A stretch of DNA of 64,000 nucleotides. Source: Planctomycetota bacterium (GTDB lineage Bacteria; Planctomycetota; UBA1135). Shown here piece by piece: positions 27,433 to 36,918 of this stretch. The number at the start of each line of letters is the position of its first letter. Position 1 is the stretch's first letter. Both the position numbers and the translations under genes were made by a program. The stretch is from positions 72,272 to 136,271 of the forward strand of contig JAPKBM010000001.1 of the NCBI GenBank assembly GCA_026421205.1, given 5' to 3'. Under the pieces are notes generated by a model. That model saw nothing but the letters and a program-made list of their open reading frames with translations. It made no database searches and was not told the origin of the DNA.

Positions 27433-29361
27433 ATGGACGTCATCCCTCCCGGCTCTCGCCTCAAAACCCTTCAAGTCACTTTTGGGGGGGCGGCGATTTC
27501 CGCTTTGACCCTTTCTCTTTGGCCCTGGCTTACCCTGTATGACCCCGGCACAGTCACCGACCACCTGACTCGCGCCGTGACTCTTACCATTGTCGGCGCC
27601 ATCGGCTGGTTCACTTTTGGGGCAAGTCTCAAAAACTCCCGCTGGTCAAAAATCGGGGCGTGGCTTTTTGTTGCAATCGCTGCATGGGGTGTCTTGGAAG
27701 GGGTGGCGTCGGCCGGCGAATTGGCCAATCGAAAGCTCTTTCGTGGCAGTACTTCTGCACCATTTCTCCTCACTCTCTTTCAACTCGACGAACCACTCTC
27801 CGAGAAGCATTTTGCCTGGGTTCCTTACCTCACCTTGACCATGGCGGCCGTTCCTGCACTTTGCATGGGCGCCGCCAGCCGACTCTTTCTCAGCAAGAGT
27901 GGAAGCACCAAGAAAATGCCCCATTCCCGCTGGTGGACTCCCATCGCATTCACCTTGGGTCTCTTGATCTGGCCCCTGGATACTTGGGCAACACAACGGC
28001 CCCATCCATTCCAAAACTGGCTCCCTGAAATTGCATCGGGCCATCCTTTCCATGAGTTCTTTCGCTACCAAGTAGTCGAGAACAATCGCCAAGAATTCGG
28101 ACAACGCATTGTGAACGGACAAGTTCTCCGCGTTATGGAGCGAGACTCCTCCCCTGCCCTAGGGAAATGGCACTTTGCTGCTGGTCGGGAAATCCTCACC
28201 ACAGACGTCAAGGACGCCGACGGCCTCCGTGTCTCCGCGCTCTTCTCTCTTTCTCTCGCCGATGCCCCCCGGACAGCCCTCATTGCAGGATTTCCTGAAC
28301 CGGCCATGGCTCAAGAGCTCCAAAGAAGTGGGGTGTCCGCGATGGACTTGGCTTCGGGTCCGCAAGAGGTTGTGGATCTTGACTGGCTCTTCAACCCGAA
28401 TTGGGCAGGAATCCCCATCCGCAGTTTCTTCGACATTAAAGAACTCAACCCGAGCACCTATGACCTGGTCCTCTATGCGCCTGCAGCTCCATGGCGACTT
28501 GGAGCGAATCCTGCCCGAGCAGGAATCTTTCAAGAGCTTGCGGAAAGTCTTTGCCCACAAGGAGTTGCGGCTTTTTTCCTTCCTGCTTCATCCCTGCCCG
28601 CACAGGAAATTGAGGGACTTTGGAAGCATTTCCAAGGGGCCTTTCAGGGCAAAGGAACCTCAAGGGCATGGATCCTCCCCCGTGGCCTCCAAACTCCGCG
28701 AATTATTTTTACGTCTAGTTCAGAAGACCTTCCAGAGCAGCTCCCCAAGCTTGTTTCCATCGGCCTACAGGCCGCCGGCTTCCCCTTGTCCTACCCAAGC
28801 GATCTTTCCCTCCTCCAGATACCAACCACAAAGGCTTTTAAGGAGCCGTCCGAATCTGCTCTCTTCCCTTGGAGCCGATTGCGTGCACGCCAAACCCATG
28901 GGGTGCAAGAGGAAATTTTGGCCGCCGAAGCCCTTGCCGTTCTCCCCCAGACCCCTATTTCTTTGGCGCTTACAGGGCATTTGGCCTCCCAACAATGGAC
29001 TTTGCCAGACTCTCAGTTTACCTCTGAATTGACCCAAATGGATCTCACCTGGGAAACCACCCAGAGCTTCCTTCAGCTCGCCCGCCAATACCCACATTCT
29101 CAACTTATCCAACGGCTTTGGATGGATTTAGCACAAGCTCTTGTGGAAAAAAGAGAGGTGGAATGGGCCGACGCCACCCTACCTATTTTGGTGGAAGAGC
29201 TCGGCTGGAGGCACCCTATTTTTCTCTGGGCAGCGGGAAGAACAGCCCTTGAGGTTATGGAGCCCGAACAAGCACTTGAATACGCCGAAGAAATCCTCCG
29301 ACAAAAGCCCGAAATGCTTAAAGCACAAGCACTTAGAGAGGAGGCCCTAAGGGCACAATAA
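27433..29361 (+). CDS. Membrane protein with degenerate spermidine-synthase/SAM-MTase-like domain and C-terminal TPR-like helices
   Basis: About 5 N-terminal TM helices; YDLVLYAPAAPW and FQELAESLCPQGVAAFFLP resemble fused spermidine-synthase-like proteins. Confidence 0.45.
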   Translation: MDVIPPGSRLKTLQVTFGGAAISALTLSLWPWLTLYDPGTVTDHLTRAVTLTIVGAIGWFTFGASLKNSRWSKIGAWLFVAIAAWGVLEGVASAGELANRKLFRGSTSAPFLLTLFQLDEPLSEKHFAWVPYLTLTMAAVPALCMGAASRLFLSKSGSTKKMPHSRWWTPIAFTLGLLIWPLDTWATQRPHPFQNWLPEIASGHPFHEFFRYQVVENNRQEFGQRIVNGQVLRVMERDSSPALGKWHFAAGREILTTDVKDADGLRVSALFSLSLADAPRTALIAGFPEPAMAQELQRSGVSAMDLASGPQEVVDLDWLFNPNWAGIPIRSFFDIKELNPSTYDLVLYAPAAPWRLGANPARAGIFQELAESLCPQGVAAFFLPASSLPAQEIEGLWKHFQGAFQGKGTSRAWILPRGLQTPRIIFTSSSEDLPEQLPKLVSIGLQAAGFPLSYPSDLSLLQIPTTKAFKEPSESALFPWSRLRARQTHGVQEEILAAEALAVLPQTPISLALTGHLASQQWTLPDSQFTSELTQMDLTWETTQSFLQLARQYPHSQLIQRLWMDLAQALVEKREVEWADATLPILVEELGWRHPIFLWAAGRTALEVMEPEQALEYAEEILRQKPEMLKAQALREEALRAQ

Positions 29362-29503
29362 AGGCCCTCATCTCCGCCTAATTTCCTTAAATTTTCTAGA
29401 GTTCTTCTATCTTGGATTTAAAGAACTTGTATGCTTGAAGCAGGGCAACCGGTTTGGACATCCCCATTCCCCATTCGGCCCTTTCTCATTACTCATTTCC
29501 CCC

Positions 29504-31171
29504 ATGAAATACTTGATCCCCGTTTTGGCAGTCCTTTTGGCTGCACCTCTCGCCGCGCAAGGCACCATGCGCGATCCTTCCCAACTAGACATGGGCCTCG
29601 GTACCGCAAAGTATCCAGCCATTGCTTCCAGTGGAAACACCGCGACCGCCATTTGGATTGAGGACGTCACCAACAATCTTTGGTCTAACTCTTCTGCCGA
29701 CGGTGGCGCAACTTGGGGACCTGCTGTGCGCATCGATGACGATGCAACGGGTGCCCTCAAGTACTGCTACGACACCAATTTGGCTTCTTCCGGCAGCTCG
29801 GTTTACTATGCATGGAGAGATCAGCGTGGTGGTGGTGGGGTAGAAGACGTTTTCTTCACGGCTTCTCATGACGGTGGCGCCACTTGGAGTGCCAACGTGC
29901 GCATTGATGATCTCAACGCCCCAGGCACCGTAGACACCGACGCGCTCAAAATTGCTGCGTCCGGAAACAACGTTTACGTTTTGATGAGGATTAACCGCAC
30001 AGGTGGCGAGGGCCTCTGGTTGGCTTCTTCTCAGGATGGAGGCGTAACCTGGAATCCAACGATCGCCGTCGATGCTGACTTAGGCGACGTGGACCTTGAA
30101 GGCATCTCTGCCGAAGGGGCTGACGTACACATCGCATGGTGTGACAACCGGAACTCCAGCGATGATGACCTCTTTTACACCATGTCTCATAACGGTGGCT
30201 TAAGCTTCATGGGCACGGAAGTCCAATTGGACGCTTCGGGTGCCTCTAACGGCGACATTGACTACAGTGAAATCTGGGTCTGCAGCGAAGGCGGTCTCGT
30301 GGCCGTTTCTTGGATGGAAGACGAACTCCCAACCTCTATGGACGACGAAGAGCTTCACGTCGTAGTTTCTTCGGATGGCGGCCATAACTGGGGCGCAGAG
30401 ACCACCCTCTTGACCGGTGCCGACGCAGACGGCCACTTCATGTCTCTTGGCAATGACGGAACGGATAGCTTGATCGCCGTCACTTGGGAAGATAACCGCA
30501 CAGGTGCCGATGAGATCTATGTTGCTGTTTCTTCGGACGAAGGCGCAACTTGGACAGAAAATCAACTCTCCACCACAGGAGGTTCTTACCCAGTTGTTCG
30601 CTGTAACTCGGTGCACATCGGTGTGACTTGGGCCGGAGACGGTTACCCAGAAAACCCTTACCTGGCAACTTCTCTTGATGGTGGGCTAACCTTCACCGCA
30701 GGCGACATGGCCAAAGGAACGCAAATCGGTGACGCAGACTATGTTGAGCTTGCCATGAATCCCGACGGTAACTTCCACGGCATTTGGTTGTCGGACGATT
30801 CCGGCAGTAACGTTTGCTGGGCAGGCGGCATGGAATTGGCCGGCCCCGGTCACCCGACTTACACGATTACTGGTTTGGTCGCAGGTGGAAACGCCACTCT
30901 CATGGTTACCGGCTGTGCCAACACGAGCAATGTCTTGTTCGCCTACTCCCTGAATGGCGCAGGTCCAACGGCAACTCCTTACGGTTCCGTGGACATGAGC
31001 ATGCCTATCACCCGGATGCCCGTGGCAGCTTGTGATGCAACTGGAACGGCCTCCCTATTGGTCGCCATTCCTAGTGGAGCCGCAGGCGTTTCAGTCTGGC
31101 TTCAGGCCGCTGAAATGCAGGTAAGTGGCGCTGTCGTTCTCACGAACGCCTTGGCCGAAACCATCCTGTAA
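29504..31171 (+). CDS. Secreted Asp-box (BNR) beta-propeller protein with C-terminal accessory domain
   Basis: Signal peptide; seven SxD(N)xGxT(S/N)W(F) boxes. Confidence 0.8.
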   Translation: MKYLIPVLAVLLAAPLAAQGTMRDPSQLDMGLGTAKYPAIASSGNTATAIWIEDVTNNLWSNSSADGGATWGPAVRIDDDATGALKYCYDTNLASSGSSVYYAWRDQRGGGGVEDVFFTASHDGGATWSANVRIDDLNAPGTVDTDALKIAASGNNVYVLMRINRTGGEGLWLASSQDGGVTWNPTIAVDADLGDVDLEGISAEGADVHIAWCDNRNSSDDDLFYTMSHNGGLSFMGTEVQLDASGASNGDIDYSEIWVCSEGGLVAVSWMEDELPTSMDDEELHVVVSSDGGHNWGAETTLLTGADADGHFMSLGNDGTDSLIAVTWEDNRTGADEIYVAVSSDEGATWTENQLSTTGGSYPVVRCNSVHIGVTWAGDGYPENPYLATSLDGGLTFTAGDMAKGTQIGDADYVELAMNPDGNFHGIWLSDDSGSNVCWAGGMELAGPGHPTYTITGLVAGGNATLMVTGCANTSNVLFAYSLNGAGPTATPYGSVDMSMPITRMPVAACDATGTASLLVAIPSGAAGVSVWLQAAEMQVSGAVVLTNALAETIL

Positions 31172-31184
31172 TCGGCCCTGAAAC

Positions 31185-31224
31185 ATAATAAGGGCCAGAG
31201 GTTTCCCCCTCTGGCCCTTATTAT
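31185..31224. terminator. 17-bp perfect stem-loop, probable intrinsic terminator
   Basis: ATAATAAGGGCCAGAGG-TTTCCC-CCTCTGGCCCTTATTAT, 13 nt after the stop at 31171. Confidence 0.8.
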
Positions 31225-31325
31225 CGCCTCACTACCCTCCATTTACCCCGTCTTCTTGCTTGAAAAGCCAGTCATTGCCGTTGGAATTCCGGCTATACTT
31301 CATTCAGGACTCTCAATCTCATTCC

Positions 31326-33026
31326 ATGAAAAATCTCATCCCCCTCGCCCTTCTTTTCGCTCCGACAAGTCTTGTTGCCCAAGATACTGAATACATGATG
31401 TATGGTGGCACGCCGGGCACCGCAGAATGGGAAGTACGCCGCACCGTAGACACTAATTTTGACGGGCAATACACCGGCGCCGATGAAGGATGGCAATTTG
31501 CCTATGACGGCGCCACTCAAATCACCTACGTCGAATCCATGATGTATCGTGAAATTAATGGCGTCCCCGCACTCTACGCCATCGCCGACGGCGACGTCAT
31601 CATCAAAATGGTTGACCTAGACGGAGATGGTCTTGCCACAGGACCTGGAGAGGTGGTCACTTTTATTGACACACGTGCCGCACATGGTGTGACCAACACA
31701 AGCCCTGACGATCTGGACTTCAGTGATGTCACCGGTGAATTGTTCGTCACCAATGACCTTTGGGCAAATGGACCGCAAGCAGGCTCGGGTATCTCTGGAT
31801 ACCTTGACCTCAACGGAGACGGAGACGCCATGGACGCCGGAGAGATGGTTCAACTCGTCGACGCTTTGGGAACCATTACTCTTCAAGAGCCTGCTGGCCC
31901 CGTTGACATAGACATCGGTGACTTTGAGTCCATCATGGTGGACAGTGCCGGCGTCGTAATCTCCTTTGCCCAGCAAGACCTTGCACTCTACGCCTTCCAA
32001 GACCAAAACGGAGACGGAGACGCCATGGACGCTGGGGAAGCTTGGAACTTTTGCAATCTTGTAGGCGACAAAGTAAATCTAGAGCTCAACGCCGACGTCG
32101 CTGCAGGCGTGCTCTACTCCCCAAGCTGTCCTTCAAACCAAAGCAGTGGTTTGTATGCAACCCTTGAAATCTTGGACGTAGATCACAACGCCGACGCCTC
32201 TGGCAAAGATATTTACTGGATCGTGAGCACGGCATCGGCCAATTCTTGTGCTGGCGCAAACGGCTTGATTTACCGTGGTGTTGATGTCAATGGTGATCAA
32301 GACCTCAATGATGCCGGGGAAGTGGTCCTCTGGTTCAACGGCCCCAATAATGGCATCATGGATTACCCTCCAAGCACATTTTACGGGGCGTCAGCTCATG
32401 ATGGAGGCATTGCATTTTGGTCGAACGCTGGACCCATGGGGTCGGGCGGAACTTACGTTCAAAATTCTATCGCCTACCTTGAAGACCTCAACGGTGACGG
32501 AGATGCCATGGACAACCTAGAGCAAACAGACCGCTTCTACTGGGCGCCGGATGGTTGTTACGCAAAAACCATGACCTCCGTTCCAAGTGGTGCGTTCCAC
32601 TCACCCGATGGCCCACAGTTCACCATCTTTGGTAATGCCGGAACAACTTCCGGGGGAACTCAGCCACAAATTGGCAACAATACCCTGCCCTACGTGGGGC
32701 AGACTTTTGAAATCACCTTGACGGATGCTCTACCCAACAACTTCGTCATGCTGTTTGCAGGATGGTCCAACGTCAACAGCACGTACGGACCCCTTCCGCT
32801 TGACTTGACGTCTCTTGGAGCCCCTGGAAACACCCTCTACGCCTCCGTGGATTTCAAAGCTCAGTTCATCACGGATGCTAATGGCGCAGCCATGTTGCCC
32901 ATCGGCCTTCCACCCAACCCAACTCTGGACGGCAGACACCTCTACTTCCAGTGGTACGTGGATGATCCCACCGCAAATCTTCGTGGGCTCACCTTGTCCA
33001 ATGCGGGCGACGCGTTGATGCGCTAA
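31326..33026 (+). CDS. Secreted acidic protein with Dx[DN]xDG Ca-binding-type repeats and C-terminal accessory domain
   Basis: Signal peptide; DTNFDG, DLDGDG, DLNGDGDAMDAGE, DQNGDGDAMDAGE, DVNGDQ, DLNGDGDAMD. Confidence 0.7.
   Translation: MKNLIPLALLFAPTSLVAQDTEYMMYGGTPGTAEWEVRRTVDTNFDGQYTGADEGWQFAYDGATQITYVESMMYREINGVPALYAIADGDVIIKMVDLDGDGLATGPGEVVTFIDTRAAHGVTNTSPDDLDFSDVTGELFVTNDLWANGPQAGSGISGYLDLNGDGDAMDAGEMVQLVDALGTITLQEPAGPVDIDIGDFESIMVDSAGVVISFAQQDLALYAFQDQNGDGDAMDAGEAWNFCNLVGDKVNLELNADVAAGVLYSPSCPSNQSSGLYATLEILDVDHNADASGKDIYWIVSTASANSCAGANGLIYRGVDVNGDQDLNDAGEVVLWFNGPNNGIMDYPPSTFYGASAHDGGIAFWSNAGPMGSGGTYVQNSIAYLEDLNGDGDAMDNLEQTDRFYWAPDGCYAKTMTSVPSGAFHSPDGPQFTIFGNAGTTSGGTQPQIGNNTLPYVGQTFEITLTDALPNNFVMLFAGWSNVNSTYGPLPLDLTSLGAPGNTLYASVDFKAQFITDANGAAMLPIGLPPNPTLDGRHLYFQWYVDDPTANLRGLTLSNAGDALMR
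31812..32032 (+). repeat. 26-bp exact intragenic direct repeat (31812-31837 and 32007-32032)
   Basis: AACGGAGACGGAGACGCCATGGACGC twice, with a degenerate third copy near 32490. Confidence 0.85.
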
Positions 33027-33044
33027 GCAACGGGTATCCTTGCA

Positions 33045-34553
33045 GTGATGCTTGGCCTTGCCCTTCTTGCTGCTTTTCCGGTGGTCTTCCAAGATGCGGA
33101 GGACCATCGGAAACTTTTGGAGCGCGCAACCAACGGCTATGAGGTCACGGACACCTCAAAGGCCTTCGCCGAAGTTGCCGGCGTCAATGCCATGGAGGCG
33201 CGTGTTGAAATATTTGACGCCAAATTGACTATTCGTGGGTGCACACAACTCAGAGACTGGCTTGTCAGTGGAATGAATCAAGCGCGGACCCTGGAGGAAA
33301 CCGACGTTCTTGCCCTTGCCGCAAACAATAAAAAGAGAAGTGAACTCTTGCGCCTTGTTTGTCTTCGTGCTTTGCAAATCACCAAGGCGCCGGTTTCAGC
33401 AAAACATCTCCTCCAAAAGAAATTCCTAAAAGATCCCCAAGACATTCAAAGAGAATGGCAAAGAACCGTGGGAATAGTTCACGCACAAGGTCGGCTGGAC
33501 GCGGGGAATATCAAAGATCTCAACAAAGAAGTGCGCGCGCTCCTTTCCAAAGCCGGAACGCCTTGGAGCATTCTTTGCTCCACGCCCTCCCTCTCTCAAG
33601 AAGATGCTTCACGGGTTGCCGAAGCCATGACCAAGTCAAAGCTCCCCGGGGATCAAGCGGAAGCCACCCGCAATCTTGCGGCCTTCACCGACCATCACCC
33701 TCTTTGGATTTCTGCGGCGAAAAAACTTCTGCTCAACACAGCATGTGGTCCCCGCGTTGCTGTTTTGGAAATGGCAAAAGCGCATTCCATTCACCACCTT
33801 GCGCCACACCTCATCCACGCCTTAGAGCAAGAAGTGCAACGCGGTGGACGCTTTGTGAATGACTTCGCCGCCACCCTTCGCGCCATCACGGGACGGCAGT
33901 TTGGCACCAACCCAGAAAGCTGGGGCCGATGGTGGCAAAGAGAAGGGGGCCAGTTCCTGAAAAACCCAGCTCCGCGAGTAAAGCAAGTGGATGCAACGGA
34001 AAAGGAAGAGCGCACGGTGGCAAGCTTATTCGGCATTCCGGTCGACAGCCTTCGGGTGGCCATTGTGGTTGATGGCTCTGGAAGCATGAATGACCTTTTG
34101 GATGACCGTCCCTGTTTCCAGGCAGCTGCCGAAGAAATGGAATCTTTCCTGGAGAGACTTTCCGAAAAGGCCTACTTCCAGGTCGTTGTCATTGGACGAG
34201 ATCAGAGAGCCTGCTTCAAAAAATCTGTGCTCAACTCGGCAAAAAATCGAAAGGCCGCAGTCAAGTACATCCGTGACTTTGATTACAGCACGGCTTCGGC
34301 AATGCATGACGTCCTTGTAGAAGCACAACGAAATGACATGGTCGACACGATGCTCTTCATCTCTGACGGAGGGGGAAGTTGGGGATCCTACGCCTTTGCA
34401 GGCCACATGGAACCCGTCTTAAAACAAGAATATGAGCGGACTGGTGTTCGTATTCATAGTATTTTTGTTGGGAGTTCCAATACAAAACGACGGTTTATGC
34501 AGAACCTAGCAGACCTTACGTCTGGTATTCTTGTTGCACCTTCTAATTCTTAA
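33045..34553 (+). CDS. Secreted HEAT-like helical + VWA domain protein
   Basis: LRAITGRQFG..W..WW, FGIPV, MIDAS DGSGSM, FISDG; start may be ATG 33048. Confidence 0.8.
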   Translation: MMLGLALLAAFPVVFQDAEDHRKLLERATNGYEVTDTSKAFAEVAGVNAMEARVEIFDAKLTIRGCTQLRDWLVSGMNQARTLEETDVLALAANNKKRSELLRLVCLRALQITKAPVSAKHLLQKKFLKDPQDIQREWQRTVGIVHAQGRLDAGNIKDLNKEVRALLSKAGTPWSILCSTPSLSQEDASRVAEAMTKSKLPGDQAEATRNLAAFTDHHPLWISAAKKLLLNTACGPRVAVLEMAKAHSIHHLAPHLIHALEQEVQRGGRFVNDFAATLRAITGRQFGTNPESWGRWWQREGGQFLKNPAPRVKQVDATEKEERTVASLFGIPVDSLRVAIVVDGSGSMNDLLDDRPCFQAAAEEMESFLERLSEKAYFQVVVIGRDQRACFKKSVLNSAKNRKAAVKYIRDFDYSTASAMHDVLVEAQRNDMVDTMLFISDGGGSWGSYAFAGHMEPVLKQEYERTGVRIHSIFVGSSNTKRRFMQNLADLTSGILVAPSNS

Positions 34554-36382
34554 TGCTCCCCCTCTCCTCCACCCTTCGCCTTAGTGTAATCCTTCTTTGC
34601 GCAGCGCCTTTTTTGCCTGCGCAAGAAATGGAGGTACATTTCCTCAATGTTGGGCAAAGTGATGCCACCCTTGTCATTGGCCCAACGGGGAAAACTTTTT
34701 TGTTTGATGCCGGAAGCAATGGAGATGGCTCAACTACCGTGGTCCCCTATTTGCAATCTCTCGGAATTTCTCAGTTAGACATTGTAGGCGCCAGCCATTA
34801 CCACTCCGATCACGTCGGCGGGCTTGATGAAGTTTGGAACGCGGGCATTCGTGCCGCCGTAGCTTATGACCGTGGAGACTCCAACCACACAGGTACACAA
34901 AGTTTCTATGACTATCGCTCTGCCTATTCTTCCGTCCGAAGCACGGTGCAGCCGGGGCAAGTGGTTGACTTGGGTGGCGGCGCCCTTATGACCTGTGTGG
35001 TTGTCGAGGGAAACCTCATGAATGGGCAAAACGTCAGCCTTTCGGGGTCTTCCCAGTGGGAAAACTCTGCAAGCATCGCATGGAAAGTGGAATATGGTGA
35101 TTTCGATATGTGGCTCGGTGGGGACCTCACGGGAGGCGGCAATGGAACAGTGGATGTAGAAACGAAAGCGGGCATTGCCTGCGGAGATGTTGATGTCTAT
35201 CAACTCAATCACCATAGTTCTCAAACATCAAGCAATGCATCTTTTCTCAATTCCATCAAACCGGAATTTGGCGTCATTCCTTGTGGTCACGCAAACAGTT
35301 ACGGCTATCCAAGACAGGATGTGGTGGATCGCATTACCAAGCCATCGCGCACTATTCCCGTTTGGTCCTTAACGGATGGCATCGGCACACAAGGTTATCT
35401 TGATGCAGGTGGCCATGTGGTTTTAAAAACGGACGGCAACACCTATTCTGCATCTTGTCCTGCGGGTGCCGCATTCACGGCCTGGTGTGATGAGCAAGCC
35501 CCTGCTGGACCGCAAGTGGGTGATGTTGTTCTTGGGGAACTCATGCGCAACCCTTTCCAAGTAGCGGATAGCTATGGGGAATGGCTTGAAGTCACTTGCA
35601 CGGATGAGTCCTCTCCTGTTAGCCTGAAAAACTTAAAGGTTCAGGACAACTACGGCAATACCTTCACCTTGGCTACGCCTATTTTAATGGAAGCTGGGGA
35701 CCCGTGCCTTATGGCCGCCGATGGCCTCCCTTCCCGCAACGGGGGCATTGCACCGGTTGTTGTCTGGCCAAATAATACGCTAAGTTTTTCTGACTCTACC
35801 GGAAGTGTAACACTAAAAAGTGGGTCACTGACCTTAGAGGAAGTGAACTGGACATCCACCTTCCCCGGGGGGTCTGGTGTTTCCGCAGAGCGCGTGGATC
35901 TCTTCGGGGACACAAGTCCGAGCAATTTTTTCGCAGCGACCGGAGCCTATGGCCTCGGTGATAAAGGCTCTCCGGCAGAGACCAATGACGCCGACGGCAC
36001 AATTTGGCCAGGGGTAGATCCTTGGATTGATATTATTCGATACCCCACCCTCGGTGGGCAACTAGAAATGAACTGGTATGCCTCGGGAGAAGCCGGCTAC
36101 CTCTTTCAAGGCTGGCTTACACTCAGTACTTTTCCTGGAATCAATGTTGGTGGAACATATTTGCCAGCCAACCTTGACCAGGCCTACAGCATGACGCAGG
36201 GAATTCCCGGCTGGTCCGGCATTGTTCCTTCGTCTGAGACCATGCCAGTATCCGTGGCTATTCCGAATAATGCGGCTTACCGAGGCCTCGGCATCTATGC
36301 CTTTTTCGCAACTTATACAAACTACCTTGGGCAAATTGGCATTCGAGATTATGCCGTACCCCTATTAATGTTCCTGTGGTAG
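34553..36382 (+). CDS. Secreted ComEC/Rec2-type metallo-beta-lactamase-fold hydrolase + lamin-tail domain + C-terminal domain
   Basis: NVGQSD, SHYHSDHVGG, GGDL, NHHS, YGYP; ELMRNP..GEWLEV. Confidence 0.8.
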   Translation: MLPLSSTLRLSVILLCAAPFLPAQEMEVHFLNVGQSDATLVIGPTGKTFLFDAGSNGDGSTTVVPYLQSLGISQLDIVGASHYHSDHVGGLDEVWNAGIRAAVAYDRGDSNHTGTQSFYDYRSAYSSVRSTVQPGQVVDLGGGALMTCVVVEGNLMNGQNVSLSGSSQWENSASIAWKVEYGDFDMWLGGDLTGGGNGTVDVETKAGIACGDVDVYQLNHHSSQTSSNASFLNSIKPEFGVIPCGHANSYGYPRQDVVDRITKPSRTIPVWSLTDGIGTQGYLDAGGHVVLKTDGNTYSASCPAGAAFTAWCDEQAPAGPQVGDVVLGELMRNPFQVADSYGEWLEVTCTDESSPVSLKNLKVQDNYGNTFTLATPILMEAGDPCLMAADGLPSRNGGIAPVVVWPNNTLSFSDSTGSVTLKSGSLTLEEVNWTSTFPGGSGVSAERVDLFGDTSPSNFFAATGAYGLGDKGSPAETNDADGTIWPGVDPWIDIIRYPTLGGQLEMNWYASGEAGYLFQGWLTLSTFPGINVGGTYLPANLDQAYSMTQGIPGWSGIVPSSETMPVSVAIPNNAAYRGLGIYAFFATYTNYLGQIGIRDYAVPLLMFLW

Positions 36383-36918
36383 TGACTACTCGGGCCATCG
36401 GCGCCCTCCTCTTTCTTTTGGCCTGCAGTATTTCGCCTGCCGAGGGGATTTTCCCAAGAAGAAGTGCTGTGTACACCACCCTGTCCCTCGAGTTCTTCGA
36501 TGCAAAGCAAGGCTGGACCCCATTGATTCAAACCCAAGGCGCAGGCCGCCAAGGCCTCTGGCAAGAATTCGGCATACTGGCCCCGCAAAATGGACCCCGC
36601 ATGTCAGGCAAGGTTCGCTTACTCCCCCGTCGTGGGGGAGATTTTCGCTGGACTGCACAAATTGAAGTTCGACTCTTACCGCACACTTCATCCGGCAATC
36701 TACTCCTTCCAGAAACTTCGTGGAAAAAAGCGTCTTCCAAAACAGCCCACCTTTTGCCGCGCGCCGACGGAACCTGGGATTTTCAAATGGCCTTGCCCAT
36801 GCCCTATCCTTCTCAGATACGCGGCCATCTGCAGTTAGAGCCCGACCCAATTTGGGAACTAGAGCGTCAGTGGCCCGAAGCGCGCCTCTCTTTCTCTGCT
36901 GCTAACCACAAAAACTGA
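36376..36918 (+). CDS. Hypothetical lipoprotein
   Basis: LLACS lipobox; overlaps the upstream stop. Confidence 0.5.
   Translation: MVVTTRAIGALLFLLACSISPAEGIFPRRSAVYTTLSLEFFDAKQGWTPLIQTQGAGRQGLWQEFGILAPQNGPRMSGKVRLLPRRGGDFRWTAQIEVRLLPHTSSGNLLLPETSWKKASSKTAHLLPRADGTWDFQMALPMPYPSQIRGHLQLEPDPIWELERQWPEARLSFSAANHKN

Follow-up and report, generated by a model that had tools for sequence, protein, structure and literature searches.

Modular domains at the ends of unrelated exported proteins are known from several systems. SLH domains, dockerins and cell-wall-binding repeats are usually terminal, are carried by many enzymes, and are sometimes found at the other terminus or in repeated form. The type A C-terminal domain (CTD) of the type IX secretion system (T9SS) of Bacteroidota (Por_Secre_tail, PF18962 / TIGR04183) is an immunoglobulin (Ig)-like sandwich of about 80–110 residues that occupies the extreme C-terminus of dozens of unrelated Sec-exported proteins per genome. 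For Planctomycetota, we know of no account of how their many exported enzymes are placed. This text is concerned with a terminal domain encoded in a 64,000-nucleotide stretch of DNA, referred to as the window (contig C59, 72272-136271), from the genome of an uncultured marine planctomycete (2.15 Mb in 96 contigs, 88% complete).

Within the Planctomycetes–Verrucomicrobia–Chlamydiae (PVC) superphylum, the Akkermansia muciniphila sulfatase Amuc0953 has a last domain that is T9SS-CTD-like, and the enzyme is cell bound; its authors propose that a comparable system may exist (PMC13524802). Three genes of the window, here called A, B and C, encode secreted proteins whose C-terminal regions ("tails") were proposed, in a first-pass annotation of the window, to be related and to act as an export or surface-display tag. 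The tentative reading put forward here, held with a little less than even confidence, is that A, B and, remotely, C end in one large uncatalogued superfamily of Ig-like beta-sandwiches that serves as a terminal docking or anchoring module.

Relatedness of the three tails

Compared pairwise by BLASTP, the tails yield nothing significant (E 2.6 to 6), and their likeness appears to exist only at the level of profiles. As a phmmer query, tail A finds 24 further open reading frames (ORFs) in its own genome at E <= 4.3e-5, with all of the matches at the C-terminal end, and jackhmmer, when started from A alone, reaches convergence with 50 ORFs, B among them, out of 6301 in six frames. To avoid circularity, a leave-out profile of 114 positions was built from 40 fetched paralogs without A and B. 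Over positions 3-107, this profile recovers A with an E of 8.6e-33 and B with one of 7.5e-9; it again finds 50 ORFs of the genome at E < 1e-3, and matches none of the residue-shuffled ORFs at E < 10. An independent B-type profile, made from B and six database relatives (7 proteins), aligns with the A-type profile without B over 109 columns (hhalign 97.6%, E 3.4e-12); as a single query, tail B found no relatives in the related-locus search. At the level of sequence profiles, tails A and B can firmly be assigned to one domain family. Its consensus contains DxxGxA, IP, G..[VLI][WY]xQ and, near the end, [ST]N, in agreement with the motif that had been read from the three tails, and Gly, Pro, Asp and core residues make up most of its conserved positions.

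Tail C is probably a remote member of the same family, although the case is weaker than that for A and B. The alternative, that C ends in an independent beta-sandwich that came to resemble the A/B type by convergence of composition and fold, so that only two of the tails are related, is improbable, but it has several observations on its side. As a single sequence, tail C scores nothing: it is not reported by the leave-out profile at E <= 10, reaches 0.7% in hhalign and 2.4 bits with the family HMM (hidden Markov model), and in a word-index search of 5.8 billion proteins returns C only. It was matched in 28 of 41 genomes of the order, the source genome included, and is kept in all seven other genomes of the same family (7/7) at 43-55% identity. 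HMMER iteration from the resulting C-type profile converges on C and one M36 peptidase without taking in any A/B-type member at E < 1e-3, so the two types never merge, and with this profile tail B reaches only E 0.013, where the best shuffled ORF reaches 0.092.

What argues for common descent is the comparison of profile with profile. An alignment of 29 C-type tails (C and 28 relatives) from the 41 genomes of the order matches the 42-row family alignment collinearly over 101 columns that reach the last residue of both (hhalign 86.3%, E 4.8e-6), a probability not above 95%. All 29 C-type tails terminate at the stop codon and end in the same hydrophobic-[IV]-[QPS] pattern as the A/B type. They sit on other passengers too, among them an M36 (fungalysin-like) peptidase with a PepSY propeptide in the same genome (G000:C80:2400-4208), the tail of which is intermediate between the types: it matches the C-type profile at E 2.3e-6 and the A type at E 0.0012 (HMMER) and 72.5% (hhalign), and so forms a bridge between them. 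The AlphaFold models of the A and C types have their 10 strands in the same order and share 13 of their top 50 fold matches. The homology first proposed for all three tails is therefore firm, by profile, for A and B, and remote for C.

Carriers, fold and distribution of the domain

A genome-wide profile count, as recommended in the first-pass annotation, gives 50 carriers of the domain among 1812 greedy ORF-genes (~2.8% of genes), every one with a signal-like N-terminus when inspected by eye. By a crude hydrophobicity rule, 44 of the 50 pass, compared with 550 of the 1576 genes of at least 150 aa, a rule too permissive to serve as a secretome denominator. Many of the signal peptides of the carriers end, by eye, in a small residue followed by Q (..AQ, ..GQ).

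In 44 of the 50 carriers, the chain stops no more than 20 residues after the domain, and two more are cut by contig ends. Of the remainder, three have the domain directly after the signal peptide, followed by a Kelch propeller, an FG-GAP propeller and a passenger of unknown kind, respectively, and one has an internal copy, which precedes another Kelch propeller. Three of these exceptions have a complete C-terminus, and it carries no further copy of the domain. In two paralogs, of 142 and 152 aa, nothing but a signal peptide accompanies the domain (G000:C11:79188-79616, G000:C91:417-875). The end of the domain has a recognizable register: among the 44 complete tails of this genome, N is found at -8 in 23, I or V at -2 in 30, and Q at -1 in 17. 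No conserved linker or cleavage motif was found before the domain, where the composition is no different from that of the whole proteins.

The passengers, scanned in 49 of the 50 carriers, are highly diverse. Peptidases, counted as six families, are represented (S8, with two members, M10, M12, M28 and M14), together with CotH+LTD proteins (five), FG-GAP (eight) and Kelch (two) propellers, and C-type lectins (two). Others are RCC1, YHYH, GSDH, PAD_porph, a multihaem-like cytochrome c, DUF1028, LVIVD, a PETase-like hydrolase and BNR, and about 14 carriers have no passenger family. Among the genes around the carriers, a TPR family of 19 members is mildly enriched, with six located within three genes of a carrier compared with 2.1 expected (contigs C16, C11, C54 and C79). 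Three genes of this family stand in a row at C16:70894-76729.

The domain itself is 105-120 residues long, folded, and devoid of a hydrophobic helix. AlphaFold2 models the family alignment with a pLDDT (predicted local confidence) of 94.6 as an all-beta domain of 10 strands, and the C-type alignment, in the same order of strands, with 88.6 overall and about 95 for the domain alone. Searches with VIA-align against 48,161 chains, of which the top 50 were listed, return for the A model a best Z of 9.3 at an rmsd (root-mean-square deviation) of 2.2 over 88 residues (8f9r_B), TEP1r at Z 9.1 and 40 chains at Z >= 8, and for the C model a macroglobulin (MG) domain of complement C3 (Z 9.0) and alpha2-macroglobulin (Z 8.7). 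The best matches form a plateau of Ig-like, FN3 and macroglobulin-type domains from which no one family stands out, and Foldseek finds nothing in the PDB for the A model at E <= 0.001. The predicted fold is a generic Ig/FN3/macroglobulin-like sandwich of two sheets.

The domain family is uncatalogued, as the first-pass annotation had supposed. Pfam gives no match on the tail in 52 whole proteins and NCBIfam no family for 42 tails; for tails A, B and C themselves, no family of either library covers any of them even at E <= 1. Full-text literature searches, which covered articles without their supplements, found no description of the domain or name for it. The nearest clusters in the ESM Atlas, Planctomycetota proteins with scores of 0.87-0.89, fall short of the level that counts. 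A sequence-profile search of the PDB with the family profile gives borderline matches only, to the C-1027 apoprotein (1hzk, E 0.0034, domain 0.021), a Cna-B domain (0.018) and actinoxanthin (1acx, 0.049), while the C-type alignment gives no match.

Beyond this genome, the domain is abundant. Of 1.84 billion cluster representatives (50% identity), the family profile matches 7193 at E <= 0.001, and 1944 of these reach E <= 1e-10. Of the best 150 metagenomic representatives, 145 have no more than 20 residues between the last copy and the C-terminus, and in five the domain is N-terminal or internal; two or three tandem copies are present in 11, and the domain is single and terminal in 139. Some representatives consist of two or three copies and nothing more, such as P0008 (369 aa). 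The end register is more pronounced here: 121 of the 150 have N at -8, 136 have I or V at -2, and 70 have Q at -1.

The statement in the first-pass annotation that such tails occur on many Planctomycetota proteins is borne out for part of the phylum: 38 of 201 sampled genomes match at E <= 1e-5, with 22 candidates scored in each, which makes the counts per genome lower bounds. Families tend to have the domain throughout or to lack it (4/4, 3/3 and 5/5 in some, 0/8 and 0/9 in others). In 20 other genomes of the phylum, a stop comes no more than 14 residues after the best match in 17, and the match is N-terminal or tandem in three. The closest named relatives of an A-type paralog tail are three loci in metagenome-assembled genomes (MAGs) labelled UBA1135 and UBA8587; one preprint groups UBA1135 with the cultured Saltatorellus ferox, Engelhardtia mirabilis and Rohdeia mirabilis (10.1101/817700). 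None of 81 sampled Verrucomicrobiota genomes has a match to the family profile, and a single weak match was found among 81 genomes from the phylum to which an Ignavibacteriales MAG belongs.

Two of 81 sampled Myxococcota genomes match as well (G372, with 15 matches, and G378, with three that did not reappear among its ORFs). In G372 (GC content 0.63; loci L162-L174), the domain carries a Cys pair and lies near the N-terminus in 12 of the 14 domain-bearing ORFs, where a short linker separates it from what is, by eye, a lipoprotein-type signal (L-x-x-C). These N-terminal copies are followed by MopE-like motifs, DUF285, LTD or DUF4397. The two exceptions are a trypsin+PPC protein with a C-terminal domain and a protein with the domain after M10; in one Myxococcota protein, PPC and the terminal domain adjoin as separate domains. 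Since the neighbouring genes in G372 are only 25-66% identical to those of the source genome, its contigs do not look like planctomycete contamination.

The three genes that led to the family are listed in Table 1. That their products have a Sec signal and carry different passengers, as first described, is confirmed: the N-termini are Sec-type by eye and end in ..LAAQ (A), ..LVAQ (B) and ..LPAQ (C), and the passengers match BNR_2 at 1.3e-11 (Pfam) in A and, in C, Lactamase_B at 2.4e-12 and LTD at 1.8e-6, with TIGR00361 at 3.7e-21, which is below the cut-off of that model. The passenger of B matches no Pfam or NCBIfam family. Four or more acidic D-x-N-G-D-G-D-A-M-D-type repeats can be seen in it by eye, which suggests calcium-binding loops. 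The reported lack of a transmembrane anchor is correct, in that the sequence has no hydrophobic anchor after tail A, B or C. The chain of A ends in N-x7-COOH, with I at -2. Its ORF is listed from a TTG, and the likelier start, on our reading, is the Met of MKYL at 29504; the likely start of B is at 31326, which matches a 566-aa database form (P0152, 100% identical).

Table 1. Coordinates in the window of the three genes and of the terminal domains that they encode.
Feature	Position	Strand	Description
Gene A	29435..31171	+	578 aa as listed; signal peptide, BNR/Asp-box propeller, A-type terminal domain
Tail A	30836..31168	+	terminal beta-sandwich domain, residues 468-578; leave-out profile covers 469-577
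Gene B	31260..33026	+	588 aa; signal peptide, acidic DxNGDGD-type repeats, B-type terminal domain
Tail B	32643..33023	+	subtype of the same domain family with an inserted loop (LPLDL..GAPG); leave-out profile covers residues 462-581
Gene C	34553..36382	+	609 aa; signal peptide, ComEC-like metallo-beta-lactamase-fold domain, lamin-tail domain (LTD), C-type terminal domain
Tail C	36032..36379	+	probable remote C-type member of the same superfamily

The genes belong to a run of six closely spaced ORFs on the + strand (27433-36918). It opens with a membrane protein of 642 aa and continues with A, B, a VWA protein at 33045-34553 and C; an exported ORF of 180 aa (36376-36918) closes it. The end of the VWA ORF and the start of C share coordinate 34553, and C and the 180-aa ORF overlap by seven bases, so that the run looks like an operon.

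A possible docking or anchoring role

From the homology, copy number, position, predicted fold and passenger diversity of the domain, all of them observed, and from the observed absence of T9SS markers, we infer that the domain may decide the location of its carriers, by docking to some partner. Since the domain is common to passengers that are mutually unrelated, location is likelier than substrate to be its concern. Under the proposed scheme, each carrier would be exported by Sec and then fold outside the cytoplasm, and the terminal sandwich would hold the passenger at a common site of the envelope, whether the cell surface, the outer membrane or the wall. The holding would consist of non-covalent docking, either to a ligand or receptor common to the carriers or between copies of the domain. 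Such a module would work in the manner of SLH domains, dockerins and cell-wall-binding modules, and not as a signal that is threaded or cut from the C-terminus. Docking is favoured over a dedicated export or sorting signal because N-terminal, lipid-anchor-adjacent, tandem and stand-alone copies exist and no conserved processing site precedes the domain. The copies in other positions favour a self-sufficient folded docking unit, and the models of the domain are confident.

A number of points weigh against this scheme. No partner, ligand or localization was observed, and no gene family is clearly enriched beside the carrier genes; the 642-aa membrane protein upstream of A is present in only 2 of the 201 genomes of the phylum. 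For the signal peptides, the calls come from inspection by eye and from the crude rule, not from a trained predictor. The conserved Gly, Pro, Asp and core residues fit a purely structural domain equally well, and a signal that is read from the C-terminus would be compatible, too, with so strong a C-terminal bias and with the fixed end.

Such a signal is the substance of one competing explanation, namely that the folded C-terminal domain is recognized by an outer-membrane translocon or sortase, in analogy to T9SS, and is then removed or used for covalent attachment to the surface. Although we regard this as unlikely, it would account for the dominant C-terminal position and the conserved final register, and also for the clade-consistent distribution, which is as expected of a system with machinery. 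The scale is comparable, at ~50 cargo proteins per genome against 45-77 Por_Secre_tail matches in each of five T9SS-bearing genomes, as is the cargo, with its peptidases, PAD_porph enzyme and propellers, and the Akkermansia sulfatase offers a precedent from the PVC group (PMC13524802). However, a signal of this kind is difficult to reconcile with copies that are N-terminal, internal, tandem or stand-alone, or with the lack of a conserved cleavage motif or linker. The source genome, at 88% completeness, has no match to PorV or Por_Secre_tail, searches that are positive elsewhere, the domain has no profile similarity to natural type A CTDs, and no co-located candidate machinery was found; the first-pass annotation had likewise seen no cognate machinery in the window, and none was found there. 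In its broadest form, this idea would make the domain the cargo tag of an undescribed sorting or surface-display system of Planctomycetota and scattered Myxococcota, parallel to T9SS but made of unrelated parts and serving ~50 proteins per cell, a proposal that for the present must be considered doubtful.

It is also conceivable, if rather improbable, that the domain is an ordinary structural or binding module of Ig-like fold (a spacer, stabilizer or substrate binder) with no role in localization, and that its C-terminal bias results from domain shuffling within the lineage. The generic fold would be in keeping with this, as would the mostly structural nature of the conserved residues, the tolerance of other positions and of tandem repeats, and the borderline similarity to the ligand-binding C-1027 apoprotein and actinoxanthin. 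Ordinary Ig-like spacers, however, are usually internal and repeated, in contrast to the single terminal copy of 139 of the 150 representatives; moreover, the passengers share no common substrate, and the domain accounts for ~2.8% of the genes of a small genome.

The proposed docking or anchoring module departs from the tag first envisaged in several respects. A strictly C-terminal position does not hold, given the minority of copies elsewhere (4 of 50 in the source genome, 5 of 150 representatives, 3 of 20 best matches in other genomes, and 12 of 14 in G372). The domain is common in part of Planctomycetota, but the copies in other positions and the Myxococcota carriers mean that it is not strictly lineage-specific and that an export signal threaded from, and dependent on, the C-terminus is less likely. 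The interpretation first offered is supported in part, by the homology of the tails, the uncatalogued family and its very different Sec-exported passengers; the threaded signal appears less likely than a docking or anchoring module. Added to the earlier picture are the link to tail C, the rule that the domain is terminal but not only C-terminal, and the N-terminal lipoprotein form.

If the domain is a localization module, the surface or secreted proteome of these lineages could be defined from sequence alone, and there would be a handle for a partner search, for example against the 38/201 presence pattern. Should its role prove to be structural and no more, it would still provide a useful new family definition for annotation.

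Comparison with described systems

Among the described C-terminal signals, the PEP-CTERM/exosortase type was rejected, as the tails are folded domains without a hydrophobic helix and Exosortase_EpsH has no match in the source genome (with a positive control); the PEP-CTERM model also has no match there, but its control was silent. The PPC domain (PF04151) was rejected too, with no match on any of the 52 proteins of this genome that were scanned.

The apoproteins of the enediyne chromoproteins (1hzk, 1acx) are alike in being secreted Ig-like domains of ~110 residues with similar G-Q..V.V.GA and D..G.A patterns. They differ in that the similarity is borderline and covers 75 of the 114 positions, that the C-type profile finds nothing, and that they are stand-alone ligand carriers of Actinomycetota. 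In Foldseek, a neocarzinostatin mutant is found at rank 15, with a TM-score of 0.52 to 2cbo, and there is no Pfam match.

The Akkermansia sulfatase Amuc0953 resembles the carriers as a protein of the PVC superphylum, outside Bacteroidota, with a C-terminal sandwich that is proposed to act in surface localization (PMC13524802). The likeness is one of description, as opposed to a direct alignment of sequences or models, and the absence of the family profile from the sampled Verrucomicrobiota genomes sets the two apart.

The T9SS type A CTD is similar in size, fold, position, number of carriers and cargo. The comparison with T9SS CTDs and Ig folds that had been suggested at the outset supports the Ig-like sandwich and gives no sequence relation to the CTD: a profile of 30 natural T9SS CTDs reaches 0.15% in hhalign against the family alignment and 0.13% against the C-type alignment. 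PF18962 has no match in the source genome; the same search gives 45-77 in each of five Bacteroidota-side genomes. PorV has none either, with a positive control in Bacteroides thetaiotaomicron. SprA, PorP_SprF and Peptidase_C25 are also without a match, but here the positive controls were equally silent. Membership of the type A CTD family is ruled out by the profile comparison and by the lack of Por_Secre_tail and PorV matches. Among the top 50 VIA-align matches, no T9SS CTD is listed for the A model, and for the C model PorU takes rank 45 with a Z of 7.0, which is evidence neither way. The domain is found in one copy at the extreme C-terminus in 44 of the 50 carriers (with two more cut by contig ends) and close to the C-terminus in 145 of the 150 representatives; unlike the CTD, it is also N-terminal, internal, tandem and stand-alone, with 4 of 50 placed otherwise, 11 of 150 in tandem and 12 of 14 N-terminal in G372. 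The domain lies outside the T9SS CTD family, yet it may work in a similar way.

SLH domains, dockerins and cell-wall-binding modules have no sequence relation to the tails (no Pfam match), but in their organization they are alike: these too are modular and mostly terminal, are attached to many different carriers, and are found at times at the other terminus or as repeats.

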